In this document: positions 10,015 through 30,253 of the stretch, one piece after another
Numbering within the stretch: the first letter of the stretch is position 1
How the letters are laid out: every line of letters begins with the position of its first letter
Source: Mayamaea pseudoterrestris
Lineage: Eukaryota
Assembly (NCBI GenBank): GCA_027923505.1
Contig: BROI01000037.1
Span: forward strand, 124,001-188,000
DNA: 64,000 bases
Direction of reading: 5' to 3'
Made by a program: the position numbers and the translations under genes
Notes under the pieces: generated by a model
Databases searched by the model: none
The model's input: the letters and a program-made list of their open reading frames with translations, nothing else
Told to the model about the DNA's origin: nothing

Positions 10015-11724
10015 ATGCCGGTCGCCGATGCTCCATCCGACGACTCGGACGACGAATACTGCCATCCTCAACCGATTCGCCTCGAATGCTTTGGCATTGA
10101 CTCGACAAGAATGCAGCAGAATGGAACGTTTCACGATGAATACAGTACTTCACGGCAAGTAAGTAGTCAATGGTCAGCATTTGCTGCTCTACGAAGCTGC
10201 TGCTCCGCCTTCAATCCGCTTCGCCTACTCGACGGCGCCTACGAAAATGTCTGCAAGCAGTGGCGAATCCTAGCCCTTGGACAGTTACTGTCCTTTTTGA
10301 ATGTTTCCAACGGAGCAGCTCAAGCGTCACTGTCACTTTCTTGTCATTTGTTTGCACCCTTGTTTACATTGGGACTGGTTTATTTTTGCTTGGCGCTTGG
10401 TTTAATTCCCATTTGGTGGAATCGACGGCGCCGTAGCAATGAGCAAACTGGTGATGGAGTTAGCAATCAGCATGGCGCACAAATGTCTGACGATCTTGGC
10501 AAGCATGATCCACCATCGACTCATGCATCCTTCTTTCGAATGGATTCCATTATGAGCAGTGCTTCGTCGCATGGCACTAGTCAGAGTCTGTTGGAACCAG
10601 CTTTTCAGTTTGATCCAAATCGAAATTACTCCTTGCTTGGCATTGTCCCATTGAGCGCTCCCGCGCTTGCCTATTTACCAATGGCCTGCTTGGACGTTTA
10701 TGCGCAATACTTCTTTTTGACTTCCTTGCGGTACACGACGCTCACATCCGTCACGTTGCTGGATTCCATTGCCATTCCGACGGCCATGCTGCTTTCGAGC
10801 GTCGTGCTTGCCCGCAAGTATCGATGCGCGCATTTTGTCGGAATCTTTTCATGCTTTGTCGGAATATTCATGGACGTGTTTCAAGACTACACGGCGGAAG
10901 ACGAAACTGGAACGGGCGGAGCCGACTTGCAGGATTATCCATTCAAGATTCGAGGCGATGTATTGGCAATCATGGGCGCCGTCTTGTTTGGTTGTCAGGA
11001 AGTGCTTGGAGAAGTGGCGGTGCGCAACTTGGGCGGCTCCAATGAATACTTGTCCATGCTGGGCTTTTGGGCATCCATGATCGCGTTTGGACAGTCCTAT
11101 ATTTCCGAAAAGGATCAAGTCACGCAGTTTTTTGCTGCCCATGATCAGCGGTACTGCGGCAAGGAGCAGGCGTGGATCTTGCTCGTGATGTATATTATTT
11201 CTAATACGTGCTACTATCATGGCGTGGCAAGATTTCTGCAGATTAGTGATGCGGCCTTTGTAAGTGCTGTAGGCTACGTCGTGGAGTGTAAAGGTCAGGA
11301 GTAAATATGATTTCTGACCTGTGTTTTACTACTTGTCCGTTGTCAGTTTAACTTGAGCTTATTGACAGGCTGTGTCTGGTCCGTTTTGTTTGGCGTATTG
11401 TTCCTGGACCGCGCTCCAAAGCCACTCTTTTACGTTGCTGTGTTCTTCATCATTGTGGGTGTCTTTACCTATGAAATGGCTTCGACGCCTGTCGTCGAAG
11501 ATGACGAAGGGCATGCATTGGAGAATGCCAAGTTTCGACGATGGAGAAAGAAGGCGATGCGTCTTCGATGCAGAATGCGACGGCGAAAGGGTACAGTGAA
11601 ACTGCCGCCTGATTCGGACGAGTCGGAAGACAGTGCTACGGAGGATGACTCGTCAGCTCAACGTTACCAACTAGATGCCAACCTAGACTCCCAGCAAGGA
11701 AGATCTGATCGAATAATCGTTTGA
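10015..11724 (+). CDS. SLC35F-family (DMT/EamA) transporter; intron 11260-11346
   Basis: LALGQLLSFL, DVYAQYF...LRYTTLTSVTLLDSIAIP, GDVLAIMGAVLFG, EYLSMLGFW; splicing GTAAGT...TGTCAG joins DAAF|FNLSLLTG, the conserved SLC35F motif. Confidence 0.88.
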
Positions 11725-11830
11725 GAAATTGAAAACTAAACGGCTTACTCTTATAATATATCATCATTACAATAATTAACACGTATTTGCTACTATAAAT
11801 TTGCTTGATTGACTGACCGTAACAATGTGC

Positions 11831-14800
11831 TCAGCTCTCCTTCGAATATTTTAAATACATGCTAGACGCGGTTGTTCGAGCAATCACCTTTTGCACTTCT
11901 GGCCGGCGCCGCTTGAACTCTTGGTGAATACGTTGCGAGAACAGAGACTGTTTCCACTTTGACCAATGTTGGCCCATCCACTGTCCTGGTGACGAGAGTC
12001 TTACTTCTTCCAAGACACCGTCAAACATCCATTGCAGCAAACTGACACGAGGTATAAGATAAGAATAGTAATAGCTTTCCGAAAATTGCTGTACCTTCGT
12101 CGCCCCAGTTTTCAAATGACGCTTCATTATTTGGCAATCTTGTGAAGACAACAAAGCTGTAAACCAATGTATAAACTGGGCAGGTAGACCTTTAGTGGCA
12201 GCTTCCGCTAAGCCGAATCGAGCCCGTGCAATGACGTGAATCGGATCGGCGTATCTCTTGCATACCCGGTGGTCAGCCAATATTTCATGTGCCCCATCGA
12301 GCATACGCTCCAAATGAGTGCCAAGGCCTACTCGCTGAACATAATCAATGTAAGACTTCGTTCTTGCAGCTTCGCGAATCGAAATGCCCCGGGCGACCGC
12401 GAAAAGAGATGTACAATTATCTCGTACGCGTCCCCAGACTGGCATCGAGATCGAACTGACTAGTTCAGCAACCTGTGCGCTTAACTCCGCAGCTGCATCA
12501 ATCATACCTGACGTCTCCCCATAAGCACGCCCAGCTTGCGTCGTGTAAGAATCTTTGGCAACTCCTTGCATAGGATACCGCTGCGTCTCCACTTTAACTT
12601 TGGGTGTGCCATCCGAAGTATCACCTTCGTTACACATTTCTTGAGCAGCATCGTCCCAGTCACCCGCGATTATGCCAACGCCAGGCAGCTCCTCTCCATG
12701 CGCGTCTACGGGTTCTGTCGTGTGATACTCGTCTAGCACACGTCGCTGTCGTGAAACTGTTTCATAGTTGAACGTCTCGTCCGGAGAAATATGTTCGTCG
12801 TGATCGTCCTCATCAGCATCTTCCCAGGAACCCCCATCGGCGTCCTCCGACTCCTCCGCAAGAGTCTCAGTGTCCACTGAAAGCTCGGCGTCTTCCAGCA
12901 CCAAATCTTCGAGCAGAAGATTTAATAAGTCACCCTCGTCAAGATATATTACATTCGCGCTCGAGTCAGATTCAACTTCCTTTGACGAATTAACACCTTG
13001 CTCGTTAAAGACATCATCTTCATCAAAAATGTAATCCTGCGACTCGTAGTAGCTTCCACGAAAATGTTCCACATCGTTCGACTCAACAGCCTCGTCTCCA
13101 AGCTTTTCGTCCACAATTTCATAATATTGCGGCATTAAGGGTACCATATCGAACAGACTCGGTTGTTTGTCGGTTACAGATTGCAATTGCGTTGCCACAC
13201 CCATGCTTTCGGGGTTTACCCTTGCTTCGGTTCCTTTTCTTTCGTCAACCAACGGCAAATGAAGTTGTTGCTCATCTTCATCATTGTCAATAAAAAGAAC
13301 CATAGCGTCGTCTTCTGTGGCTGCTGCTGCATTAACTTGTGGTATCCAATCGACTTGCAAAACAAGAGGTGCGGGATTCTTCATTTCACTTAACTCAGTC
13401 ATGGTGGACTTCTTGAGTGTGTTGCTTGTTGCGCTGTCTGTGGTAACAGAAGCAGCAGCAAATTGTTTGAGATCACCAGCGTCATGTTGTAACACTTGAT
13501 GCGACGGGGTGCCGTCATGCACTTCTTGCGTAGTCCCGTACCTCATTGAGATGCCGATTGCAACAGCGATAAGAGCGACAGTAATGCTCATCATCCTGCG
13601 GCGGCGCTTGAGTCGACGCTTTCGTTCTTCGTCGTCGTTATTTCCAAAGCCAAGAGCAACAACTGCAGATGAGTTCATATGCTTCTTGATGTACTGAGTA
13701 CTCATACATATTTGCTGGTCGGTTGCCAATAGTTCGTCATGTTCCGACGTCAAATTGCCGTTCCTGCTCCATCGAGAACTTCGACTTTGACCGCCACCTC
13801 GCTTGACCACTTGTTCAAAATCTTCCAGCTGACATTCCTTAGCTTCTTGACGGTAGACCCAGTCGGCCTTGGCCGTGCTTGCGGTCATACAAACCGGCAC
13901 GTCGGGATCAAACATGTGAATGACGTTACATTCGGCCAGCATGTTCTCCATTTGCTGCTTGCCATAGTATCGCGTAGCCAAGCGTAAAATCTTGCGAGGC
14001 GGAACCCGACGCATAATGTCTAACGCATCGTCAATCAATTCTTGAAAGGAGACTGTCGCCGGCGGCTCCATGAGAGAACTCAAATTGCTCGAAACACAGC
14101 TCGCTGCGACATCCTCGCGCGGGTAGCTGCTATTGTATCGCTGAATCTTGTGGTAGTCGTGATCCAGTCGCTCCACCAGCAGAATCTCTGCCTCTTCCGC
14201 CGTTCCACTCTCCATGGTTGAAACTGTTCCATCCTCGTCATTCTGCTCATCATCACTAACATAGCCATCACCTGGTCGGTATTTCCAACCAACAATGCTA
14301 CTATTCTTGGGAAGTCCCCGAAGCGTCTGATGCAGCAGCGAAAAGTCGCATTCGCAATCCAAAATTTCCGCTCGATTTGACGAATGAATCACCATGGCCA
14401 CGCTCACATAGACTGGAAGTAGCGAATGTCCAACCAAAAAGGCGTCAAAGAGTCGCTTGACCACCTGCGTGTCTCGAACCTCGTGGGCAAACCAGGTCAC
14501 AACCCACGACAAGGCGAAAAAGGGCTCCATGCCCGCCTCGTACAAGTGCTCGTGCACCTGCGGGTCCAATAGCGCAATCAATGGGAAAATGGTGCATCGC
14601 AGCACAGTTTGAAGGGCGGCAAAGTTGGTTTGGAGACAGTCGCGCAAGTGAAACTGACTGACTTGCAGCAACACAGCCGATGCGAGATTCGCATCTGGCG
14701 GTGGAGCCATGCTACTGAAGAGGGGCGAGGCAGGCGGCAGGCCAACTCCACTCACGCCTCCCAGTGCGCTGAGAAAAATGCAAGCGACATCATGGTAGCC

Positions 14801-15588
14801 TTGATAGTATCGGAGAGGCTGCGTCTTGAGCAATCTTGAAGATGTATTGGTCGCGTAGTAAGTCTTGGTCAAAGTCGCGTTGATGAGCAAGGCCAATCGT
14901 TGCTGCTTGCGGCGAATCAATCGAGCCACCTTGCGGTTGCGCTTGTGCTCCATTTGAATGCGCTGAAGACGCTGCGTACCCGTCAGCAAATGCCAGGTGC
15001 ATCTCAAAACATCCAATGAAATTTGATCGGCATCCAGACAGATACTCTGCGGAAGGAGTGGCTGGTTGTGATCCTCGTGCGGAGCATCGCTGCCAGTACT
15101 TGCGGTTGAATGGTCCGATGCGACTGAATTATTGTCGCTGTCACATTCTGGTTTAACAGGATTGGCATCAAATGACAGCGACTCCAAAGCTAAGGAGGCT
15201 CTTGCGGATGATGTATTAGTATTTGACTTTAAAGGAGGCCGAGGTGGAAGGCCTGCTAGGGCTGTTGCTGTGGTATTGTTGGTAACGACTGTTATCGATG
15301 ATGCACTTTCGCGACGAATGGGAGGCTCCGCCGCTGTCACTTGCTCAAAGAAGCATACATCATGAAGTCCGACGAGCTTGGGCCAGGCGCGTTTGCGAAG
15401 AGAGTCTATGCGAAAAACAGAAAATGAGGAACTGCATGGAAGAAGTACACAAGACACACTTTCGCAAACATACCATGTACCAAACCACCCTCCGACAGCG
15501 CTAGCTCGCGAAGCCGCCAAAGATCCACCACCTCCTCGTTAAGAACGGCTTCAATTTCCAGTGCCTTGTCTTCCAAAAAGTCCTCCAT
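11831..15588 (-). CDS. Rab-GAP TBC protein, TBC1D20/Gyp8-like, with TM and long acidic C-terminal extension; intron 15406-15473
   Basis: Exon 1 VDLWRLRELALSEGGLVH|DSLRKRAWPKLVG; QISLDVLRC, YYQGYHDVA, PFFALSWVVTWFAH, VVKRLFDAFL. Confidence 0.85.
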
Positions 15589-15867
15589 GGTTGCTTTTGC
15601 TTTTAACTTGCTTGCCCCTGGATGAATCGAATTGTGTCAGCTGCAACAGAAGGCCCGCGCGATGATTCATGGCGCGCTGCCTCCGAAGCTGCGAGAAAAG
15701 TAGCCTTACTTTGCTGCAGAGCCATTGGATCGCGCGCGTTTCGTGAGAAAGGCGATCATGGTGCGACATTTAAAAGAAACAGCTGCAACCGACCGCGCCA
15801 CCATGACCAAATTCCTCGAGGTGCCGGTCTCTCGTCCATCATCATACAAGCAACTACCATATACGGC

Positions 15868-17134
15868 ATGTCCCACTCACTCGTCCCCATTCGCGTTGAC
15901 GCTTGGTCCGCTGACAAGTCGACTCGAATCGTTGATACCTTTTTGCTAGATCCCGTGTGCTGGCCCATTCGCTCGAGTGAACCATCCGTGATGGTTGAAG
16001 AAAATACGCAATATTTAGCCGATACGATACTATTGGATGCCGATGTCATGGGAATGGGGCGAGCGGCGGCGAGTACTGGAGGTGACAGTGGTAGCAAATT
16101 TACGGGGCGATTGCAGCTATGGAACTTTTCGCTGCAGCAGCGACTCTGTGATCAGGTAATATTCTTAACTGTAACTGCGCTATGCGTGTTGCTTTTCTTG
16201 AGCCATGCGTCGCTTTGTAAGAACGTGACTAAGAAATACCAAGAAGTGTACGAGACTCATATATCTTTCATATTAACAGATTCGTGGACAACTATGGAGA
16301 GTTCTTATGAGTACCTCTGGGCCAAGACGCGAGTGGCAACAGCCGAAGCAACAACTTTCACTCGAGTCGAAACGGCACAGCGTACAGCAGCAGCAAACGA
16401 ACGGACAGGGAGACTCAGTGATTGGAAAAAGAACAAGCGAGGCTGCTGCAAGTGAGGATGATGGTCGTCCCTTAAAGCGAATGAAGCTAGAAAATGACGA
16501 AGCTCTGAATACTGAGAAGGCAGCCGCGTCGAACGATGCAATTACCTCGGATGTCAATACAATAGCCACAAAAACTGATTCAACGTCGCAAGCTGAAACG
16601 GCTCCATTTTCTATGACTGAAACTGAGGAGGTAACAAGCGCCGGCAACCCTGGATCAAATGCTTTACATTTTCAACCGTCGGCATCCACAGCTCCACCCC
16701 ACCAAGGTTCGACCCAACCGAGACCTTTAACAGTCGCCTCGCATCAGCAGTCTGCAGCGCGTGATCCCATTTACGGATCAAAAATGCCATTGGGCAATCT
16801 CATCCCCATTCGCATCCGGTTGACGGCTTTTGGTATTCGCATTCATGACGACTTTTATGTTGACCCGGTCCTTGACACGTCGCCTTTGGTGATTGCACAA
16901 TCTATTGCCAAGGATTTAAACTTGAGTGACGATTTGCTTATAGCGTTAGCCGTCGACATTTGCGAGCAAATACATGGCATGCAAATGAACCAGGAACCGA
17001 TACTGCCCGCGTACGACATGGAGCAAGGAGCTAAATCATCAACGGAGGGCAAAAATGTAACGGCTGCCTACAGGCTGGATCAAAAGGTCCACATTGCTAA
17101 CGTTGCGCACTTGGTGCATGACTACCGTGCATAA
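15868..17134 (+). CDS. SNF5/SMARCB1-repeat protein (SWI/SNF subunit-like); intron 16156-16279
   Basis: Two SNF5-type repeats: LVPIRVD...IVDTFLLDP...LCDQ|IRGQL (restored by splicing) and LIPIRIRL..FGIRIHDDF..D....SPLVIAQSIAKDLNL....IAL...ICEQI. Confidence 0.65.
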
Positions 17135-18517: not shown

Positions 18518-19000
18518 CACACCTGCTTGTGGTTGACAGTGAATGGTTTGATGAAGTAGACAAGGAAAGGCATAGACAAGCTTGGTCGTGATCTACAACG
18601 GCACTGCACCATGGGTCACAAGTCACAACCGCGGGTCATCGATCTTGCATCTCGCAGCGCAGAATGCTTGCAGATGACGCATCGGTACTTGATGTTTGTA
18701 CCGGAGAGACAGCTGAATTGATGACGTGGGAAGAGGAAACCCCTTTGTCACTGTGTTCCAAAATGTACTTGGCCTCCCGCGTCAGCCGCGCCGAGTACGC
18801 ACGCGATGGATGAATGAACTGCAAGCCACCAAAAGCGACGGATCGTTTGACCAGCCGACGCATCATCTCTTCTTCCGTGTTTCTACGCCTGACTCTTTCG
18901 GACGACAAAAGTTTGCTTGCGAAAGAAGGGGACAAGCTATACAGCAGTCTAGAAGGTACTACATTGCACTTGTAATTTCCCCCTGCCGCCTTGGACCACC

Positions 19001-20947
19001 ATGTGTTTGAAACCCGATACCCACAAGGAGGCGCTTCAAGCTGCCGTCCCTCCAGCACAGAAAATCCCCGAAGCCATCACTCCCACTCATTCGCACGAAC
19101 GCAACACGTCCTACGATATTTGGTTGTTTCTGGGAGTCGCTCTCTTTCAGAAATGGACTCCTGTTTGGCCCATCTATGCCATTTACGCCATGCGCTTCTT
19201 GTCGACGCATGTGCTTCTCTCCTTGCATTGGATGTTTGTCGACAAGGACAACTACACGCACAAGCTCACCAAGAAGCAGCTACTCCGTGAGCGAGGCGAC
19301 TATTTGACGGCCTACTACTTGCACATGTACGTGCAGATTGCACTGCAGCTTGTCTTTCCAAGCATGTTTTTCAACGACAGCTCCATCATTCCAAGGTGCA
19401 TGATGGAAGCCTTTGCCATGCACGTCTTGTTCGTCGAGCCAGTCTACTACATGGTCCATCGCTGGTTGCATGTTCCTTCGCAAATGAAGTCCATGCATGG
19501 CTTTCACCACTTGAGTATACAAACGCTGCCAACGACAAGCATGGTACAAAACTTTCACGAGCACATTGTCTACGTGGCAACCTTTGGACCGGCCTTTTTC
19601 GTGCCCTTTCTCGTCATGGGGCGTCAGCATTGGGTCGCCATTGGAGCCTACTTGGTCTTTTTCGACATTGTCAACCAGTTTGGACACATGAACATTATCA
19701 TTCGCAACAAGCTATGGACGAGCAAGTACTCGCCAATCAAGTATTTGCTGTACACGCCCGAGTTTCATCTTGGACATCATGCCTACTTTAACGCCAATTA
19801 TGCTCTCTTCATGCCCATTTGGGACTACTTGGGTGGAACGGCACGCGAGTATCGCAAAAAGGATCCAGCAATGTTACCGAAGAGTCAGCAGGACTTTTGC
19901 TTCATCGGACACAATGGTGGTCTCAGTCATTTGCTGACTATACCAGAGCTTTGCATCTACAAAATCTACGACGACTACAAAGTCTACCTACCGCTTCGCC
20001 TTGAAATACTCTTGGTGCACGCCGTCTGTCTGGTGACTCGCCTCTTTCGCAATTTCTACTACTGCTCGCGCTTTTGCGTCGCCAATGAGCGCATAGCCCG
20101 CATCATTGTCCTGCTGCGGACGCCGTATGACTACATTACGCCGAGTCGCTATGCCGGCATTAACGAAGAGATTGTAAAAGGCATGCGTGAGCAGCACCAA
20201 AACTATGGAACACGCTACTTTGGTCTTGGTAATCTGAATAAGATGAAGCAACTGAACGACGGTGGCATTGATATTGTCAACATGGTCAAGAACGACCCCT
20301 ATCTTTGCGACAAGAAAATCCGCGTTTGGACGGGAGATACCATGACGGTGGCGTCCGTGTACCATCAGATTGCCGATATTCCAAACCTCACCGAGTTCTA
20401 TTACATTGGTGCAGGCGGTAAAGTGGGAACTGCCGTGTGCGAGCTGCTCGTCAAGAATTATCCGCATCTAAAGATCAAAATATTCTCACGGACACCGCAA
20501 CTTAAACACCCCAACATTAGCTACTCGACTGATCTCAGCGAAATGAAAGACTTTAAGGTTGTCCTTGTCGGCAAGATTTTGTCTGGCAAAATGTACGCCA
20601 AGGCATTGCTTCCTCACCGAGAGGTCAAGACACGCTTCATTCTAGATTACACCGTACCGGCGCTACCCATTGACTGTCTTAACAAGCGGCCTGAAAACAT
20701 CCAGCACATTCGCGTGGGCTTGCTGCAATGTACGAGTGGCAATTTTCTTCGTGGCCATTATGATTTTTGCATGAGCCACGACGAGAACCACATAGTGCCA
20801 TGTCACTTTGGCTGCCTTATCAACACGGTTGAGGGTCGAGAGACAGACGAGGTTGGAGACATTGATCAAAGCCAAGTCCAGCGCATGTGGAAGCTAACGC
20901 TTGCGCGGGGTTTTGAAAATATCAAGATCGACTACAGCTACGATTGA
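19001..20947 (+). CDS. CER1/CER3 (WAX2)-like protein: fatty-acid-hydroxylase His-box domain plus WAX2 C-terminal domain
   Basis: His boxes YYMVHRWLH, HGFHH, YTPEFHLGHH; NYALFMPIWDYLGGT; LGNLNKMKQLNDGG; RVWTGDTMTVA; IGAGGKVG; VPCHFG. All are collinear with plant CER1/CER3. Confidence 0.9.
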   Translation: MCLKPDTHKEALQAAVPPAQKIPEAITPTHSHERNTSYDIWLFLGVALFQKWTPVWPIYAIYAMRFLSTHVLLSLHWMFVDKDNYTHKLTKKQLLRERGDYLTAYYLHMYVQIALQLVFPSMFFNDSSIIPRCMMEAFAMHVLFVEPVYYMVHRWLHVPSQMKSMHGFHHLSIQTLPTTSMVQNFHEHIVYVATFGPAFFVPFLVMGRQHWVAIGAYLVFFDIVNQFGHMNIIIRNKLWTSKYSPIKYLLYTPEFHLGHHAYFNANYALFMPIWDYLGGTAREYRKKDPAMLPKSQQDFCFIGHNGGLSHLLTIPELCIYKIYDDYKVYLPLRLEILLVHAVCLVTRLFRNFYYCSRFCVANERIARIIVLLRTPYDYITPSRYAGINEEIVKGMREQHQNYGTRYFGLGNLNKMKQLNDGGIDIVNMVKNDPYLCDKKIRVWTGDTMTVASVYHQIADIPNLTEFYYIGAGGKVGTAVCELLVKNYPHLKIKIFSRTPQLKHPNISYSTDLSEMKDFKVVLVGKILSGKMYAKALLPHREVKTRFILDYTVPALPIDCLNKRPENIQHIRVGLLQCTSGNFLRGHYDFCMSHDENHIVPCHFGCLINTVEGRETDEVGDIDQSQVQRMWKLTLARGFENIKIDYSYD

Positions 20948-21571: not shown

Positions 21572-22999
21572 TCACCTTTGCGTTATGAAATCCGTCGCTG
21601 TTGCTCCCGCTGCTGGTAGGGTTGTTGATGGGTCATCAAGTCGCATGTGTTTTCGATTGCAGGCACGTTCACACTCGTGCAAATCTTGCTTTCGCAGCAA
21701 TGCTTGCGTGCACTCCAGTAGACATCCAACCGCGGATACAATTCTTGGACCAAAAGTTTCTGTGCACATGTGCAAACCATCAAAAAAGATATTGTTGATA
21801 GGACATATGTCCGTGTCGTTAAAATTTGTTGTGCTCTGAATTGGGTGCTCGAGGCAGTTGGTGGCGATTGGTCGCGGCCACGGCAGTGGATCGTTTGGAA
21901 TAAGGTCCGCGACAAAGTCAGACCGAGTTGTATCGTAACCAAGGTTGCGAGCGTTCATCATACCAACCTGTGTTATTAGCGTCCCTAACTCGAGTAGTGT
22001 GACGCTAATGGGCATGGCCAATTCTGCATCGATCGTGCGATTTAATTGCCAATCGCTTACGAATGACCGTATCCGACGATTTGCCGCCATCATATCGGTT
22101 GTATCCTCATATTCTTTGACGAGCGGAAGATCCATGAATACAATCGTCTTGACGCCGAAGACCAAGTAAGCTAGCTCGACTGTCTCTTGGAGTGACTCGC
22201 GGGTAATTTCGTTAGGTTGAATCCATATCTGGGGGACGCGAAATATCATGACATCGAACGATCCCAGTGGTGGCAAGCGCATAGAACTGTCTGTTGGAGT
22301 ATTTTCGGTTGTGACATTTGCGCTATTGACGACACTGCTTAGCCATGAAAAGTTTTTCATGCGTTCCGCCATTTCTAGTCGCCAGCCGCCACCTGCCGCC
22401 GGTGGAAGTTTGGCAGTGAGACCGAATTGCTGGAGCATGCCAGTAATGCGCCAGCCTGCAATGGTTCCACCGCCTCGAGCTGGCGAGAGAGTGTTGACAT
22501 CGCGTAAGCACCCTGGCCCGGTGCATCCCAGAATGGCGCGATCATTGGCGGTCAACAACGATTGTGAAGTTGTTAGATCGGTATCATTAATGGATCCAAA
22601 GGCGACACTCTGAAAGAGCACGGAGAGCTGAATTCCTAGCGAGTCGCCCATAACAATTATGTTCATGTTCGTCGCCAGGCGAGGAGTATATGCAGACTTT
22701 AGAGCTTCCTGCAAGTCTGAAGGGAATGGAAGTCGTTGCTCGTCGCCACATCTATACTCCTCCAATGGATTAGCTTGATAGTACAGCTGTTCCGGTGGAT
22801 TCGGAGTCAGTTCTACATGAAAGTACTTGCTCGCGTGCTGTGCTTGTTCCTCATTATCGTCGACAGCTAAAGTCCTTGGCTTGGAGGAGAGATCGTTTTC
22901 AGCTTGGAAATCCGGGAATGACGTAAACGACAGCAAATGGGTTGTCGATAGAGCCAGCACCGCAAGAGCAAAGCTCCGGATAGAGATCACCCACAACAT
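21572..22999 (-). CDS. Type II membrane SGNH/PC-esterase (TBL-like O-acyltransferase/esterase)
   Basis: N-terminal TM; IIVMGDSLG (GDS motif) and C-terminal FFDGLHMC (DxxH). Confidence 0.65.
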   Translation of the reverse strand: MLWVISIRSFALAVLALSTTHLLSFTSFPDFQAENDLSSKPRTLAVDDNEEQAQHASKYFHVELTPNPPEQLYYQANPLEEYRCGDEQRLPFPSDLQEALKSAYTPRLATNMNIIVMGDSLGIQLSVLFQSVAFGSINDTDLTTSQSLLTANDRAILGCTGPGCLRDVNTLSPARGGGTIAGWRITGMLQQFGLTAKLPPAAGGGWRLEMAERMKNFSWLSSVVNSANVTTENTPTDSSMRLPPLGSFDVMIFRVPQIWIQPNEITRESLQETVELAYLVFGVKTIVFMDLPLVKEYEDTTDMMAANRRIRSFVSDWQLNRTIDAELAMPISVTLLELGTLITQVGMMNARNLGYDTTRSDFVADLIPNDPLPWPRPIATNCLEHPIQSTTNFNDTDICPINNIFFDGLHMCTETFGPRIVSAVGCLLECTQALLRKQDLHECERACNRKHMRLDDPSTTLPAAGATATDFITQR

Positions 23000-23393
23000 T
23001 TTCTTGTCGTGGATAACTGTATCGTCGAATGCTACAAAGTGTGACTTGACTTGAGAAACAATGCATGGGAGGAGAACTGGTTCATTTGATCACTGACGAG
23101 GTCAAGTCTCGCAAGTGAAATTTACATGTAATTACTTTTCATGAGGACATACGATAAGGCACGACCAGAGGGTTAATTATCGCTTTCCCAAAGAACAGCT
23201 CGATTCGTCAGATAGGGTGTCAAAAGAACAGCTCGGAGTCGATCATGGCGCAGTTGCGCTTCACCATTGTGATATGTGAGTCGTACCGGTATTGACAGCA
23301 TGTCGCTGCGGGACGAAAAGACGAATCAATGCGCATTGCATGCATATATCGTTCCTTGGCTGCTCGACTTGTCTCTGTTGCGGGGGAACGACA

Positions 23394-25001
23394 ATGATCC
23401 CCAGACGATTATTTTCGGGGAGAGAAGTGACGACAAGGTCAATTTGTCATTGGTCCAAAGCGCTTTGCGCGTCGCAATCGCGACAATGGTCCACCATCAC
23501 TGCACTCGACAAGCATGCGCACATGATGCAGTCAGCGCGAGCAAAAGCAAATTTTTTACGTCGGTGTATTGTGACAGAGATGGACAAGAAAGTGGCTGAG
23601 GGAATGCTGCGTGAAGATTTTGCGCAGAAGGCTGTTGCCAGGAGACTGCAACGCCTGCAAAAAGCTTTGGAGGATTACGACAACCAACATTTCATTCAAT
23701 TATTGGAGGAACGAGCAGAAAGCGAGCACCACAGATTGCGGTCGACGGAGCAATCGAAGTCGAAACACGAAGTAAAATCTGTGAATGCACGAGACAAAGA
23801 ATCAAAGTCGTTGTGCAGTTTAAATGTGCACGACGCCTCTTTGTCATCATGCACCACCCCACGACCGACGATTCCACGCGGATTGTATATTTACGGACCA
23901 GTTGGAACAGGCAAGTCCATGCTCATGAATTTGTTCTTCGCCAGTGCGACTAGTGTTACCAAGAAGCGGCGCTATCATTTTCACGAGTTCATGTGCATGG
24001 TGCACCAGCGCATCCATTCGTTGAAGCACGATTCGTTACGAAAGGACGAGCGCAACTTTACCATTGACACTGCCATTCAAAACAATCCAGTATACCAAGT
24101 TGGCATTCAAATGTCGCGTGAAATATCCTTATTGTGTCTTGATGAGTTCCAAGTCACGGATATTGCAGACGCCTTGATGTTACGAATGCTCTTTTCCGTC
24201 CTTTGGGCCAGAGGAACCGTAGTAGTAGCCACCTCGAATCGGCCTCCACGCGATTTGTATCAAGGCGGTATAAATTTTGGATACTTTGAGCCTTTCATTG
24301 GGCTTTTGGAGAAGCATTGCATTGTTTGTTCAATGGAAAGTGACGTTGATTACCGACGACTTGGTTTGAAAGGTGACGAAAGTTCGTTTATCTACCTGTC
24401 GCAAAATGAAATACACCATAAGCAGGAACAAGTAAATCATGCCATAAACGACATGGTGACAATCTGTCGAGCCGACGCAAACGTTGTGTACGATATGGAG
24501 TTTCCACTAGGGCACAATCGGTGCCTCATCGTTCCGGACGCCGACGACAGAGGCAAGGTCGCTCGGTTCGATTTCAAGACGCTCTGCCAGACTGAACTTG
24601 GTGCGGCCGACTTTCGGAAACTTGCGCAGGCTTTTGATGTGGTTGTGATTGAGCAGATTCCAGTACTGACGCTTGCTAATCATGATGCAGCAAGACGATT
24701 TATTACACTCATTGACGAGATGTATGAGCATCAGACTGGGCTAATTTGCTCGGCAGCTGCGCCGACACCCGATTCTTTGTTTGTCTACTCTTTTTCCGAC
24801 ACGTCCAGCGCAGAGAATGGTAGTGACGATGAAGTCAGTACGCCCGAAGGATGGATTGATCAAGCCACTCGCGGCGGACAAGCGGTCGGTGCACTGGCAA
24901 GCGTACGAGAGTTAGGCTTTGCGTTTCAACGAGCAGCTAGTCGAATGCAAGAAATGACATCGCAAGCATGGTGGACAAATACAGTCAGATATACCAATTA
25001 G
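23394..25001 (+). CDS. AFG1: AFG1/LACE1 (ZapE-like) mitochondrial ATPase
   Basis: PRGLYIYGPVGTGKSMLM, RYHFHEFM, LLCLDEFQVTDIADA, ATSNRPP, ARRFITLIDEMYE, FAFQRAASRMQEM. Confidence 0.93.
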   Translation: MIPRRLFSGREVTTRSICHWSKALCASQSRQWSTITALDKHAHMMQSARAKANFLRRCIVTEMDKKVAEGMLREDFAQKAVARRLQRLQKALEDYDNQHFIQLLEERAESEHHRLRSTEQSKSKHEVKSVNARDKESKSLCSLNVHDASLSSCTTPRPTIPRGLYIYGPVGTGKSMLMNLFFASATSVTKKRRYHFHEFMCMVHQRIHSLKHDSLRKDERNFTIDTAIQNNPVYQVGIQMSREISLLCLDEFQVTDIADALMLRMLFSVLWARGTVVVATSNRPPRDLYQGGINFGYFEPFIGLLEKHCIVCSMESDVDYRRLGLKGDESSFIYLSQNEIHHKQEQVNHAINDMVTICRADANVVYDMEFPLGHNRCLIVPDADDRGKVARFDFKTLCQTELGAADFRKLAQAFDVVVIEQIPVLTLANHDAARRFITLIDEMYEHQTGLICSAAAPTPDSLFVYSFSDTSSAENGSDDEVSTPEGWIDQATRGGQAVGALASVRELGFAFQRAASRMQEMTSQAWWTNTVRYTN

Positions 25002-25724
25002 TACAGAAGTATATTCGACCAACACATATGTACAATTACGATTAGCTACATTTTACATCAACTGTCGAATCATTGCTTCTCAGACTCATTATTTAAATTC
25101 CGCACCCAGGAAAATTTTGCGGCGGACTTGAATGCTTGTTTGTTCACTCTTTCTTTCTATGCATACCGATAGGGTCTGTACTGATCAACTACTCTTTCTA
25201 TGCTCGTCCCTGTCCTTGCTAATTGGGAATTTCTTTGAATTGTGCGCTAGTAGCAATATAGATTTATTTGTCGACGTGACTATGCCAAAGCGCTCGCGGA
25301 TCAATATTCTACTAGTGCGACAAGTAGAGAGCATGAGGCTCCTCCACGTGCCATTCACTCCATTCATACTTGAATTTAGACGGCAATTTGCCTCGTATAA
25401 CTTGTCCGCAATGTTGTGAATGAGTCTCGCGAGGCCGATCGCCAAAAGAGATCGCACCGGTACTCCAGGGGTGCGTATTTCCACGAACGTTTCACCATGG
25501 AAACGACGTACATATTATGACGGCATCCACGCTAGTCATACAGCTGAATCTGTCTCGCGGTGAAAGCACAGCTCACTCTATCCGGCTATAGTTGAATCTG
25601 ATCACTTTCGAGTCGCTCAGCTGCAATTGTATTCCACTTATCAACCTCTTCGCACATCAAGCAACAAGCAATCGATCATTGCTTCATCGCGGTTTTGCCA
25701 ATTAAGCAACAAAAGTCATCAAAC

Positions 25725-27889
25725 ATGTCAACCAACAAAAAGAGTAAGACTAGCATGGGCGAAATTCAACGTCAAAAGAGTCCAGCCGAGTTTTTCGCCG
25801 AGAATCAAGCCATTGCCGGTTTTGACAATTTCGGCAAGGCCCTCTACACGTCCGTGCGCGAGCTGGTGGAGAATGGGTTGGACGCGTGCGAATCCATTGG
25901 CGAGCTTCCAAACATTTCCTTGCATATCACAGAATATACGCAGCAGGAATTTAACAAAATTGCCGGAATTGGAGATTCGCCGCGAAAGAATCAGCGAGAT
26001 ACGGAACTTTTTGAGACCAAGGCATCGAAGAGTCGCAGCAAAAAGAGTCTCGATGCAGCAGATGAACTTGAGTTTCAGGCAGACGGAGTCGGCAAAGAAG
26101 ATGATGAAAAGGCGAAAAAGAAGCCGCGGCGAGGAGCAGATGCCTACTTCCAGTTGACGGTCCGCGACTCTGGCTGCGGCATGGCCCACGACGCCATTCC
26201 CAATCTCTTTGGTCGCGTCCTTTCAGGCAGCAAGTACGGCGTGCGGCAAACCCGAGGCAAGTTTGGTTTGGGCGCAAAAATGGCCTTGATTTGGGCCCGG
26301 AAGAGTTCAGGGCAACCAATTCGCATAAGGACGGCGCACCGGCCGAATGGAGGCAAGCCATCATCGTATGTGAGTTCATGCGTGCTTGACATTGACATTT
26401 ACAAAAATGAACCCAAAATTATTGAACATAGCAAAAAGACAAATACACAAAGTTGGACTGGAACGGAAGTGTCGATTCTCATTGCTGGAAACTGGACCAC
26501 GTACAAGTCACGAATAGTTCAATATTTTCAACAGCTTGCCATTATTACTCCGTACGCAAATTTGACCATGGTTTATGACAATCACTCGGACCCCAAGCGC
26601 TCGATGAGGCTTCAATATGATCGCAGATCCGAACAAATGCCTGAACCGGCCAAGGAAGTCAAGCATCATCCAAGCTCGGTAAACAATCTGGTTGTGCAGC
26701 AATTAGTTCGCTTTACCAAAACCAAGACGCTAATCAAGTTCTTGACCACGGAACTATCCTGTGTTAGTCCATCCATAGCGAAGCGCTTGATTGATGAACT
26801 GGGAAAAGACTATGATCAAGACATGCATCCGAACGAGTTGACTGATAAGCAGGTGACAAGGCTGGTGCAGTTGCTACGACAAGTCCAGCTCTTTAGACCA
26901 CCGGATGGATCCTGCCTCAGTCCACTGGGCGAGTACAATTTGAGTTTAGGCATTCAAAAGGTGCTTGAACCGGATCTGATTGCGACGGCGCGCGACAAGG
27001 TGAGTGTGACAGATTGTGTGGCTGATGAAGCAACTGTCTGTGGCTAAATTTATTCGCTAACACACTATCGTGCATGCACTGCAAATCTTAGCCCTCCGCA
27101 TTTGAAGGGCATCCATTCATCATCGAAGCAGCTGTTAGCTTGGGCGGAAAGGATGCCAAGGAAGGCATTTCCGTTGTTCGTTTTGCAAATCGCATTCCAC
27201 TTTTGTTTGAGGGCGGCGCTGACGTTTCGTCGCGGGTTGCCACGTCCAAAATCCGATGGGCGAACTACAAAGTTGATCACAAGAGGGACAAGATTGGAGT
27301 TTTCGTGAGCATTGTGTCAACCAAGATTCCTTTTAAAGGAACGTCCAAAGAATACATTGGCGATGATGCCACAGAAATACAGCTGTCCGTCAAGCGCGCA
27401 ATTCAGTCATGTTGCCAGCAGCTGCGCGTGCGGCTAGCAAAGCGGAATGCTTTAAAGGATGCCAAGGAGAGGAAGAATCGTTTGACAAAGTACGTTCCGG
27501 ATATTGGGCGCTCACTGTTTGGTATTCTGGATCAGATGAAGACGCGACATGCGGAAACAAATCTTCTACCTCCATCACCAACGAAACGATTACGGGTTGA
27601 TCCAACGGCCGCAGCGCACATGATTCGCTCTTTACAAAAGGGTGATGTGACGGAAGCGGTCATTAAAGCGAGACTGGAAGCTGCCATTGACAATCACATT
27701 GAAACGGAGGAGACTGTGGCAGCTGCGGCGGCAAATGGAAACATCGACAAGCACCTAGAAGGCGTTCCAATCTTCATTGTGCCACTTTACAATCTAGATG
27801 ACTCCAAAAATGATATCGTCGGCTCGCTGTTCACCTTTCGCCCGCTGTGTCCCATTCGCGTTGTTGCAATGAATACGGCGAGTAATTGA
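25725..27889 (+). CDS. TOP6B: DNA topoisomerase VI subunit B; intron 27000-27091
   Basis: SPAEFFAENQAIAGFDN, RELVENGLDA, DSGCGM, QTRGKFGLGAK, EVKHHP; spliced ..RDK|PSAFEGHPF; RFANRIPLLFEGGADV, STKIPFKGTSKEYI. Confidence 0.95.
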
Positions 27890-28185
27890 TTTTGGAGAGA
27901 ACGCCATGAATGTTCGTGTCACCAGACGAATTCTCTGCGTGTGTCGTATAACACTTAATCTACAGCGCTCGCATTCATCACTAGTATGTGGTAATGATAT
28001 GGACGTGCCTTGAAAGAAAGTGATTTGTAAGACCGTCTCGCGATTATCTTTTTTTAAGGTGGCTACTTGTACTTAAGCGTAAGCATCAGCAACGTGCCTA
28101 CGCAATGGTAATGTAAGCCAGAGGATTCCAAGCTACTTTCAGATATGGTAAAAATGACTCAGTTTTGCTGCTACATTTCTGCAAA

Positions 28186-28680
28186 TTAATTGCATGGTGC
28201 GATACATCGACACGCTGTCTGCTGTCTGGGTCGGTCATCATGCATTTCTCCCCAAAGTCTGGCAAGCCCCTGCAGCAGCCCATCTTTCGCCAAAGCATCG
28301 ACCGAAACGTGGCTTTCATCATCGTAATTACTTTCTCTTCGTTTGCTGCTCTGTTTGACAGGTGCTTTTCCGTTCGACGTCACTTCGTTTCTGGCTGCAG
28401 AAGTATCATGACAACTGGCACCATCTGATGAAACGTGTTGTTCATCGCCCGAGCAGCAGCTCGTCGGACTCATCAGCATTGAACAGCCATGGTCTTCAGC
28501 GTACTCTTGCTGACATTGTTCCGATACTTCATTGTCGTCGCTTGCATCATTGGCTAATTGTGCAGCAGCATCCTTTGGCGACTGCCTTGTGCCTGCTGCA
28601 GCAATTGCAGCCAAATGTTGCTGCTCCCGATGCTGCTTCCAAAAGCGATAGCCGACAATTCCAACCGGTACAAGAAACAT
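28186..28680 (-). CDS. Hypothetical small protein with N-terminal hydrophobic segment (a short upstream exon is possible)
   Basis: 164-aa ORF with TM-like start followed by basic residues; no recognisable domain. Confidence 0.4.
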   Translation of the reverse strand: MFLVPVGIVGYRFWKQHREQQHLAAIAAAGTRQSPKDAAAQLANDASDDNEVSEQCQQEYAEDHGCSMLMSPTSCCSGDEQHVSSDGASCHDTSAARNEVTSNGKAPVKQSSKRRESNYDDESHVSVDALAKDGLLQGLARLWGEMHDDRPRQQTACRCIAPCN

Positions 28681-29011
28681 GATTAACTAGTCAAGCTGAG
28701 TAATAGTGTTACCAGATTGTAGAGTAAAGTCTCTTGGCATGATGAGTCTCGACATCATGTTTGTGTTAGATCGCGTGGATTTTGTGTCGGAGGGAGCGTT
28801 GAAACGTCAACGAGCGTGCCGGGCCTAGCCCCCGGGGGTGACCCCTTCAGCAGACGAATGAACGACGCGACGAATTGCACCACACAAATCACCATGGCAA
28901 TCCACTGTTCGAACATTCCAGATCAGCCTTCGCAATCAATTCTGAAAGAAATCAAATTACATAACAACGCAAAAGTTTGTCAGCTCTTGAACATTCCGCT
29001 CTACCAGTATC

Positions 29012-30253
29012 ATGTCGAGCAGCCGCACCTTTCTCCGTGTCCGTCGCCAGCGATCCGCCGCTTCGGCCGACGCCATTTACCTACAAAACATTCAGACGAA
29101 TGGAGGAATTGAATTGAACAAAATTGGAAACAATAGAGTTGCCGTTTGGAGAAAAATCGATGAAGCGGAGCACGAGCGCGAGAATTCGCGCAAACGAAAC
29201 TACCGCGTGCTCGATGCCGTGCTGGAAGATGACTATGTTTCTGCCGTCGCGACAGACAATGACATACTTCTTGACAGCATGAATTATTCCGCCAGGAAGC
29301 GACGAAAACTGACTCTGCTGCCATGCATGACGATTAGCAACTTTGTGACGCGCAAGTCCCAGTCGCCGCGCAAGCAACTTGCGATTCGCATTCTTCACCC
29401 GACGGAACGACTGGTGGACGACTCACTGCAGCAAGTCTTTCAAGGCGTCACGTCTGCATTGGAACACTATCGACTAATTACACAAGATTCCAGACTGGCA
29501 AACGAAGCAACGAAATGGCTCGCTTGGCGAAACAGTAGCGGCAGTTTGCTGCATGCGTGTGCGCTTTGGAACGAACATGACATTTTGCACGACGTGCTGC
29601 GCACGCTACTGCGGGACTCGAATACGCAATCAGCAGCAGCAGCAAATACTTGTCATGCCGCGTATGCTAGTATGATATTGGACAGTCTCGATGCCGATGG
29701 CCGCTCGCCGTATCAACTGGCGCAACTCTCTGGCCATGCGCAAGTTTGCGAACTGCTGGAGGCTTACGGAGCCGGCGACTATTTGGTCGACTTGTATGCG
29801 CTAGACGACGAGGAAATGGTGGACGCAAATAAGCACTTTTTGGAACATGACGCAAGTGCGAACGAATTTAGTGCAGCAACAGATGTCCCGTACATTTCCT
29901 GCGATTTACATGGCGGCGTTGGCTACTGGGACGATCACGGTCAATTAATCTTGGAGCATGCTCCACCTAAAACGGCGAGCAGCGAATCGCTTCACGATGA
30001 AGAAAGCGTCGACTCGAACCACGAAGATTGGGAGGGAAATGACTATCCGGACTACGAATTCGACAATGATTATGATCATGGAGAAAACAGCGAAGGCGCT
30101 GACAATGAGTACTTGACGGACATTGTTCAAAACGACGAAGACACTCAACAATTTGGCTCTTATGCGGCAGTCATGGATCCGTCGGGGGACTTTGACGCGG
30201 CATATGGAATTTATGGGCAGGGTGATACGGAGGAATATGACAATGAAGTGTAA
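29012..30253 (+). CDS. Iwr1/SLC7A6OS(DMS4)-like RNA polymerase II import factor with internal ankyrin-like repeats
   Basis: N-terminal FLRVRRQR; GDYLVDLY; acidic DEESVDSNHEDWEGNDYPD (Iwr1 'DSN.E....NDYPD'); ankyrin-like SLLHACALWN and DADGRSPYQLAQLSGHAQVCELLEAYGA. Confidence 0.65.
   Translation: MSSSRTFLRVRRQRSAASADAIYLQNIQTNGGIELNKIGNNRVAVWRKIDEAEHERENSRKRNYRVLDAVLEDDYVSAVATDNDILLDSMNYSARKRRKLTLLPCMTISNFVTRKSQSPRKQLAIRILHPTERLVDDSLQQVFQGVTSALEHYRLITQDSRLANEATKWLAWRNSSGSLLHACALWNEHDILHDVLRTLLRDSNTQSAAAANTCHAAYASMILDSLDADGRSPYQLAQLSGHAQVCELLEAYGAGDYLVDLYALDDEEMVDANKHFLEHDASANEFSAATDVPYISCDLHGGVGYWDDHGQLILEHAPPKTASSESLHDEESVDSNHEDWEGNDYPDYEFDNDYDHGENSEGADNEYLTDIVQNDEDTQQFGSYAAVMDPSGDFDAAYGIYGQGDTEEYDNEV

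Follow-up and report, generated by a model that had tools for sequence, protein, structure and literature searches.

The window analysed here is a stretch of 64,000 nucleotides from Mayamaea pseudoterrestris (NCBI GenBank assembly GCA_027923505.1, contig BROI01000037.1, positions 124,001 to 188,000 of the forward strand). At window positions 19001..20947 (+ strand) it contains a complete single-exon coding sequence for a protein of 648 aa plus stop, referred to as P0001, as defined by the listing of ATG-to-stop open reading frames (ORFs) and standard-code translation. The nearest upstream in-frame stop is at 18950. The protein is best explained as a membrane enzyme with the build of algal CER1/3 hydrocarbon synthases, but one that belongs to a separate, far more divergent clade found widely among diatoms. 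A first-pass annotation made from the sequence alone had described an intronless 648-aa ORF with the motifs HRWLH, HGFHH, HLGHH, GAGGKVG and PCHFG. This description was exact at 19001–20947 (+), and all five motifs are conserved in the diatom relatives of P0001.

At least 120 of the 230 database proteins found with P0001 (E ≤ 0.001) are 53–100% identical to it and cover 92–100% of the query. For most of the best 120 of the 230 relatives the cover is end to end (96–100%), transcript-derived MMETSP proteins included. An alignment of P0001 with its diatom relatives (21 rows) shows a shared N-terminal start, with Met-Cys in 18 of the rows. Given the end-to-end alignment with relatives that include transcript-derived proteins, and the common start, the gene model is complete and no intron is needed. 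Judged from the names of close relatives and the 21-row alignment, the family is spread over both centric and pennate diatoms. All named close relatives among the matches listed are diatoms, which agrees with the diatom-like genome recognised in the first-pass annotation. Phaeodactylum, Thalassiosira, Fragilariopsis and Pseudo-nitzschia do not occur among the names in the best 120 of the 230 matches. Many relatives carry the automatic JGI name [quoted passage not shown]. A family profile searched against 1.84 billion representatives gave 575 proteins at E ≤ 0.001, of which 71 reach E ≤ 1e-30.

Four coded public runs of one study supplied contigs that are nearly identical to the window. These contigs cover most of the gene at 95–100% identity, with no joints and with no single piece across the gene. 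At least 40 differences between window and contigs were listed, 35 of them inside the ORF; among these, 30 are synonymous and 5 nonsynonymous, against a random expectation of 21% synonymous. Together with the intact and conserved ORF, this excess shows that the gene is real, intact and under purifying selection. The listed differences inside the ORF are substitutions, apart from three single-base omissions (19521, 19548 and 19895) found only in low-depth contigs of run X3. Small indels are seen in the contigs just 5' of the start codon (18880–18994), for example three bases inserted behind 18994.

Two domains in one chain

The first domain of P0001 is of the fatty acid hydroxylase type, a di-iron membrane domain at residues 139–280 (19415..19840, + strand). 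It matches PF04116 with 67.9 bits (cut-off 31; E 1.5e-18), the sole Pfam family above threshold. The domain holds a complete tripartite set of eight His with the classic spacing HX3H, HX2HH and HX2HH, all on the + strand: box 1 is HRWLH (H153, H157; 19457..19471), box 2 HGFHH (H166, H169, H170; 19496..19510) and box 3 HLGHH (H256, H259, H260; 19766..19780). Each box is invariant in 21/21 diatom rows and aligns with a box of CER1 and CER3, box 2 with HSHHH/HSLHH and box 3 with HSLHH. The eight His are also complete in 58 of the 59 rows of a wider superfamily alignment.

An AlphaFold2 model of P0001 built from the 21-row alignment has long helices at 39–51, 56–79, 91–118, 127–156, 185–206 and 211–228, with low confidence. 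A 19-residue hydropathy scan (threshold 1.4) gave one segment in the N-terminal domain, near residue 197, and other matches at 336–340 in the C-terminal half. The first 38 residues are hydrophilic, without a signal-peptide-like hydrophobic stretch. This argues against plastid import, and P0001 is predicted to reside in a membrane of the endoplasmic reticulum (ER) type, as proposed for CER1/3, and not in the plastid. After the Met-Cys start the diatom proteins have a conserved motif, THS..ER.T.YD (residues ∼29–39), which is absent from canonical CER1/3 proteins. The Met-Cys start and this motif could represent a lipidation or regulatory N-terminus.

The second domain is a two-lobed reductase domain resembling cyanobacterial acyl-ACP reductase (AAR; ACP, acyl carrier protein), of the WAX2 / CER1-like_C type, at residues 298–645 (19892..20935, + strand), and was assigned from the model fold and BLASTP. 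It contains a dinucleotide-binding Gly loop, GAGGKVG (G470–G476; 20408..20428, +), and the motif PCHFG (20798..20812, +) with a putative acyl-accepting Cys, C601 (codon 20801–20803). In the first-pass annotation PCHFG had been likened to ACHAG of CER3 and the loop to the NADPH site, and the Cys and GAGGKVG do align with the CER3 Cys and GATSKLG. Residues G470, A471, G473, K474 and G476 are invariant in 21/21 diatom rows. C601 is Cys in 20/21, the exception being P0101, whose C-terminus is scrambled. The C-terminal half alone (residues 301–648) finds CER3 by BLASTP with E 3e-14, loop and Cys aligned, and the stand-alone CER1-like_C protein P0252 (77.9 bits on PF12076) with E 3e-25. These two matches show the homology of the C-terminal domain despite a sub-threshold score of P0001 on PF12076.

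From about residue 330 on, the model is confident, with a pLDDT (predicted local distance difference test) of 85–95. VIA-align matched residues 298–645 to the whole AAR chain (1–341) with Z 22.1–22.2, a root-mean-square deviation of 3.7–4.0 Å and 305–313 of 341–344 residues aligned. The runner-up was the terminal amidation domain (TAD; Z 20), and the next unrelated fold had Z 11. Foldseek against the PDB placed the carmabin TAD first (E 3e-10) and AAR next (E 1e-8 to 4e-7), with generic Rossmann dehydrogenases only at E > 1e-4. The link to AAR came from the fold search only: sequence searches of solved structures with P0001, the 21-row profile and a stand-alone C-domain relative gave no AAR or CER entry. 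No CER1 or CER3 structure was among the Foldseek or VIA-align matches or in the sequence searches of solved structures. NCBIfam gave one irrelevant match (16.5 bits, cut-off 274).

S496 closes the strand that follows the Gly loop and is invariant in the 21-row alignment. The residue behind it is R, S or K, never acidic, which under general Rossmann-fold rules would be compatible with the predicted use of NADPH by the C-terminal domain. In AAR, the acyl chain is described as being moved to Cys294, after which NADPH reduces the acyl-enzyme to free aldehyde (10.1101/2024.10.28.620694). Residues 298–645 of P0001 span the whole AAR fold (PDB 6jzq/6jzu/6jzy/6jzz; Z 22). By analogy, the two might have in common the formation of an aldehyde by Cys and NADPH and its hand-over to a di-iron deformylating enzyme. 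AAR differs in having no sequence-level match to P0001 (15% identity in the structural alignment), and it is a soluble protein separate from its di-iron partner (ADO), which is ferritin-like and not of the membrane hydroxylase type. The TAD of CarI (PDB 9e4s–9e56) has the two-lobed fold and a conserved Cys beside the nicotinamide, but is described as a bacterial off-loading domain of non-ribosomal peptide and polyketide synthases that is NAD-specific and has an amidation role (10.1101/2024.10.28.620694).

Relation to CER1, CER3 and CER1/3

In 2026, green-algal CER1/3 was reported to be bifunctional and to make the C21:6 alkene in Ostreococcus (PMC13326499), which puts in print what the first-pass annotation had stated for some green algae. 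The algal CER1/3 proteins described there (OtCER1/3 of Ostreococcus tauri plus four more; Baca-Porcel et al. 2026, PMC13326499) are, like P0001, one chain with an eight-His domain followed by a WAX2-type domain with Gly loop and Cys. According to this study, mutating the His motifs, the Cys (AtCER3 C587) or the NADPH loop (AtCER3 A461N/T462L) abolishes hydrocarbon or aldehyde formation, and the algal CER1/3 need both motif sets. In our comparisons the canonical clade was represented by proteins from Pyramimonas, Tetraselmis, Guillardia, Hemiselmis, streptophyte algae and diatoms, with no Ostreococcus sequence among them.

P0001 has the two domains in the order of these proteins, hydroxylase domain first and WAX2 domain second, and BLASTP aligned it colinearly over both domains, about residues 140–640, with all three types. 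Xanthoceras CER3 (P0169; 26% identity, E 4e-34), Selaginella CER1 (P0165; 25%, E 3e-33) and the canonical CER1/3-type protein of Nitzschia sp. Nitz4 (P0336; 27%, E 3e-43) were each found in one alignment. A protein-language-model look-up pointed the same way, as the top three of 30 matches were all CER1/aldehyde-oxygenase clusters (scores 0.96–0.97). With the domain order and full-length alignment in common, the proposed chemistry of P0001 would be the same as that of algal CER1/3. There are several differences from the canonical proteins. P0001 is just ∼27% identical to them and lies in a separate deep clade, its loop is of the GA[GNT]GK[VI]G type and not GATSKLG, its box 2 is HGFHH and not HSHHH, and it has its own conserved N-terminal extension and the sub-threshold CER1-like_C score.

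In the alignments C601 falls opposite the ACHAG Cys of canonical CER1/3 and that of Xanthoceras CER3 (C583), at the position of AtCER3 C587, a candidate catalytic residue. GAGGKVG aligns with GATSKLG at the position of AtCER3 A461/T462, where P0001 has A-G at the A-T sites. The AtCER3 numbering was inferred by position from the 632-aa Xanthoceras CER3 (C583, A455/T456). In the 59-row alignment the Cys column holds Cys in 53 rows: 15/15 of the diatom clade, 6/6 close unnamed relatives, 13/13 other algal proteins, 14/14 canonical algal and bryophyte proteins and 5/5 CER3. Only the CER1 rows, all six of them, lack it and have W or S instead. This retention in the 48 algal/bryophyte-type and 5 CER3 rows and loss in all CER1 is the pattern expected if the Cys marks reductase activity. 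Of the 15 diatom-clade rows, 14 have a Gly loop that reads GA[GNT]GK[VI]G, and P0121 has GGNGKIG. In CER3 and the canonical proteins the loop is GATSKLG, and in angiosperm CER1 it is degenerate.

Land-plant CER3, the partner in the alkane complex that serves as acyl-CoA reductase, thus resembles P0001 in its aligned Cys and NADPH loop, but is reported to work with a separate CER1 and to have dispensable His motifs of its own (PMC13326499). Land-plant CER1, the aldehyde decarbonylase of that complex, has the tripartite His boxes and the colinearity in common with P0001; in angiosperm CER1 the Cys is replaced and the loop degenerate, whereas P0001 keeps both. The contrast between CER1 and CER3 on which the first-pass annotation had built its reading is therefore borne out by the alignment.

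A tree of the superfamily was inferred from the 59 rows and 625 columns (IQ-TREE quick mode, LG+C20), with SH-aLRT (Shimodaira-Hasegawa-like approximate likelihood ratio test) values as the only support measure. P0001 groups with diatom proteins in a 15-row clade (support 99). This clade is nested in a 21-row group (support 100) whose stem measures 1.39 changes per site. The remaining 38 rows include a 26-row canonical clade (support 99) with prasinophytes, cryptophytes, Bacillariaceae, streptophyte algae, bryophytes, CER1 and CER3, together with an Amorphochlora pair, an Aureococcus clade and two long-branch singletons. P0001 does not fall inside the clade with the lineages of the characterised enzymes, and SH-aLRT support is 100% on both sides of the stem. 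Because the program flagged long branches that meet, the detailed branching order is uncertain. By this placement, P0001 is judged not orthologous to the characterised algal CER1/3 and is assigned to a separate deep clade. Of the CER1/3-type identity proposed in the first-pass annotation, the part that stands is full-length colinear homology with CER3, CER1 and canonical CER1/3, whereas membership of the characterised CER1/3 clade does not.

The clade of P0001 has centric members (Chaetoceros tenuissimus, Odontella aurita, Pseudictyota dubia, Trieres chinensis and Ditylum brightwellii) and pennate ones (Seminavis robusta, Epithemia clementina, two Entomoneis species and Gedaniella sp.). The closest outgroups of the diatom clade are unnamed marine proteins of 552–647 aa (P0123, P0124 and P0126–P0129), in which His boxes and Cys are retained and the loop is of the GGTGKIG type. 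Given these outgroups, the clade that contains P0001 appears wider than the diatoms. In one environmental paralogue in the diatom clade, P0122 (715 aa), His boxes 1 and 2 are gone, as is the first His of box 3. GAGGKVG and PCHFG are still present and the C-terminal half is well conserved; the protein is a single sequence on a 3.7-kb contig. Read from its motifs, P0122 is a putative CER3-like specialisation outside land plants.

Canonical CER1/3 also occurs in diatoms of the family Bacillariaceae, namely Nitzschia sp. Nitz4 (P0336), Cylindrotheca closterium (P0462/P0461) and Nitzschia sp. RCC80 (P0509). P0336 was found in a search seeded with Selaginella CER1 (43% identical) and scores 199 bits on PF12076. 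Among the matches listed, the Bacillariaceae proteins are 62% identical to a Guillardia theta protein (P0481) and 50–56% to named bryophyte proteins. They have diatom hosts and architecture in common with P0001, but nest in the canonical clade, among proteins of green algae and cryptophytes. Two families with a deep split between them are therefore present in diatoms as a group. In line with this, monophyly of all 17 diatom rows, a group named after inspection of the tree, was rejected (415 log-likelihood units worse, p-AU 2.5e-45 in the approximately unbiased test).

The N-terminal domains were analysed in a separate tree of 25 two-domain rows, trimmed to the first 330 residues, and 23 short hydroxylase-type matches, 6 of which are fragments of CER-type proteins. 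The backbone of the free tree did not resolve (support 41). Holding the 31 CER-type N-domains together against the 17 single-domain proteins gave a likelihood 16.4 log units above that of the quick tree inferred freely (p-AU 0.825). This comparison favours one common origin for the fusion but does not prove it. The first-pass annotation had named, among the outcomes that would speak against its reading, a failure of the motifs to align with the CER3 Cys/NADPH site and a grouping with sterol desaturases; the motifs do align, and the N-domain data favour the CER-type grouping instead. The identity of P0001 as a single-domain sterol desaturase or sphingolipid hydroxylase is contradicted by the fused 350-residue reductase domain and disfavoured by the N-domain comparison.

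Predicted hydrocarbon formation and its alternatives

We think it somewhat probable, with considerable reserve, that P0001 acts as a single-chain acyl-thioester reductase and aldehyde decarbonylase which makes Cn-1 hydrocarbons, possibly including the diatom C21:6 alkene. In the proposed mechanism, an acyl thioester with a long or very long chain (most probably an acyl-CoA at the ER) would be loaded onto Cys601, and NADPH would reduce the acyl-enzyme to a fatty aldehyde in a manner comparable to the ping-pong mechanism of AAR. The aldehyde would then move to the di-iron domain inside one polypeptide or homodimer, where C1 would be taken off to give a Cn-1 alkane or alkene, with electrons probably from cytochrome b5. 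Polyunsaturated alkenes would be plausible products, e.g., all-cis-3,6,9,12,15,18-heneicosahexaene (C21:6) from docosahexaenoyl-CoA.

A CER1/3-type protein of Amorphochlora amoebiformis (P0147, 764 aa) carries a C-terminal cytochrome b5 domain (PF00173, 55.8 bits). Enzymes of this type are said, after work by Bernard and colleagues in 2012, to need b5-delivered electrons, and the b5 domain fused in P0147 fits this need. The fusion would place the electron donor in the same chain.

The C21:6 alkene and other polyunsaturated alkenes have been known from diatoms for more than 50 years, as stated in two papers that cite Blumer 1970 and Lee & Loeblich 1971 (PMC4483651, PMC13326499). The C21:6 hydrocarbon of diatoms is given as the 3,6,9,12,15,18 isomer (PMC4483651), the same alkene that is reported to be lost from Ostreococcus when OtCER1/3 is knocked out (PMC13326499). 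In brown algae, C21:6 is described as the delta-1 isomer, and the source reports no CER1/3 homologue there and leaves the route unassigned (PMC13521276). The diatom Thalassiosira pseudonana is reported to have no fatty acid photodecarboxylase (10.1101/2020.06.23.166330). For the role in desiccation or a wax layer that had been suggested in the first-pass annotation we found no support.

Several points weigh against hydrocarbon formation by P0001. It is 25–27% identical to relatives of the characterised type and lies outside the clade of all tested enzymes, beyond the stem of 1.39 changes per site, and at this distance the transfer of function to P0001 is long-range. The WAX2 assignment of the C-terminal half, made in the first-pass annotation and upheld by CER3 homology and the AAR fold, does not extend to the Pfam model. 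PF12076 (CER1-like_C) scores 19.6 bits on P0001 against a cut-off of 28.3 and over residues 597–639 only, and in precomputed matches it appears in 17 of the best 120 of the 230 P0001 relatives. The model of the N-terminal domain is poor (pLDDT 35–50 around the His boxes). C601 and AAR C294 each lie 47 residues before the C-terminus (of the 648-residue protein and the 341-residue 6jzz chain), a correspondence taken from the aligned ranges (298–645 to 1–341) and not residue by residue. Most algae are reported to have fatty acid photodecarboxylase, which can also make C21:6 from docosahexaenoic acid. Finally, fatty acid hydroxylase domains do many chemistries, which means that decarbonylation by P0001 is not guaranteed.

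This last point leads to the best-surviving alternative, an aldehyde-forming acyl-thioester reductase whose di-iron domain serves another oxidation: a hydroxylation, a desaturation or the formation of a 1-alkene. Instead of a Cn-1 hydrocarbon, the enzyme would then yield a lipid derived from the aldehyde, for instance an alcohol, a hydroxy-aldehyde or some other oxidised compound. The PF04116 superfamily is known to cover many reactions, the clade of P0001 is very distant from the tested decarbonylases, and the low backbone support in the free N-domain tree falls between this clade, canonical CER and single-domain hydroxylases. We nevertheless regard this alternative as unlikely: the likelihood improved when the CER-type N-domains were held together, and domain order and junction match CER1/3. 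Across the clade, moreover, the eight His are retained along with the reductase motifs, as in the enzymes reported to need both for hydrocarbons (PMC13326499).

A second alternative is that P0001 is not self-sufficient and works in a heteromer with a specialised paralogue or canonical CER1/3, comparable to plant CER1 with CER3. The plant CER1–CER3 complex and the reported dimerisation of OtCER1/3 (PMC13326499) would fit this, as would the existence of P0122, with its degraded His boxes and preserved reductase motifs, and of canonical CER1/3 in some diatoms. Both motif sets are, however, kept by P0001 and 14/15 diatom-clade rows, and five of five algal CER1/3 tested in print are reported to have made hydrocarbons alone (PMC13326499), which makes a heteromer rather improbable.

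Very improbable in our view is a catabolic direction, in which a fatty aldehyde would be freed by the di-iron domain, for example through a cleavage like that of alkylglycerol monooxygenase, and then oxidised to an acyl thioester in the Cys/NADP domain. Alkylglycerol monooxygenase is indeed an aldehyde-yielding enzyme of the fatty acid hydroxylase family, and thioester-forming aldehyde oxidation via a Cys is chemically feasible. Against this, the closest solved fold is a reductase and all characterised relatives with the fused architecture are reported as reductive and hydrocarbon-forming (PMC13326499). The ordinary sterol desaturase or sphingolipid hydroxylase suggested by the JGI names and by PF04116 as sole above-threshold family is hardly credible, because that annotation accounts for residues 139–280 only, the other 350 residues being a conserved AAR-like domain homologous to the C-terminal domain of CER3, and the N-domain data favour grouping with CER N-domains.

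The genes that flank P0001 add no lipid context among the neighbours examined. Those at 10015–17134 and 23340–30253 include an SLC35F-type transporter, a RabGAP-TBC protein, an AFG1-like ATPase and a Topo VI B-like ATPase, i.e., ordinary nuclear genes. Two overlapping ORFs, 15622–16455 and 16307–17134, have no family match and may be one gene with an intron or frame change. The convergent neighbour ORF at 21572–22999 (− strand; 475 aa) matches no Pfam family even at E 5. Its translation, read by eye, has a GDSLG stretch and later DGLH, reminiscent of SGNH/GDSL hydrolases.

Published work touches on the existence of such proteins in diatoms at least. A review, in one sentence citing Chaudhary et al., states that two-domain homologues occur in diatoms (PMC13510223). 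In our literature search this sentence was the only statement found, and the search gave no functional or phylogenetic treatment of a diatom CER1/3-like protein and no paper naming the enzyme behind the diatom C21:6 alkene. The study of algal CER1/3 is described as covering green algae and two cryptophytes and mentions diatoms once, for their alkenes (PMC13326499); its spreadsheet supplement contains none of six diatom or stramenopile terms.

On the preferred reading of P0001 as a hydrocarbon synthase, a bolder proposal can be made, which we hold as possible but doubtful. The main hydrocarbons of diatoms, C21:6 and related polyunsaturated alkenes, might be made by the P0001 clade as the enzyme long sought for them, and not by canonical CER1/3 or photodecarboxylase. 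The clade might then be a second, ancient line of single-chain hydrocarbon synthases among marine algae, in which splitting into reductase-only paralogues of the P0122 type may have begun independently of land plants.

A conserved diatom gene with both sets of active-site motifs is a directly testable candidate for the old question of diatom alkenes. It also shows a CER1/3 superfamily of greater age and diversity among marine algae than the picture of green lineage plus cryptophytes suggests, and the P0001 family could supply new single-gene hydrocarbon synthases for engineering.

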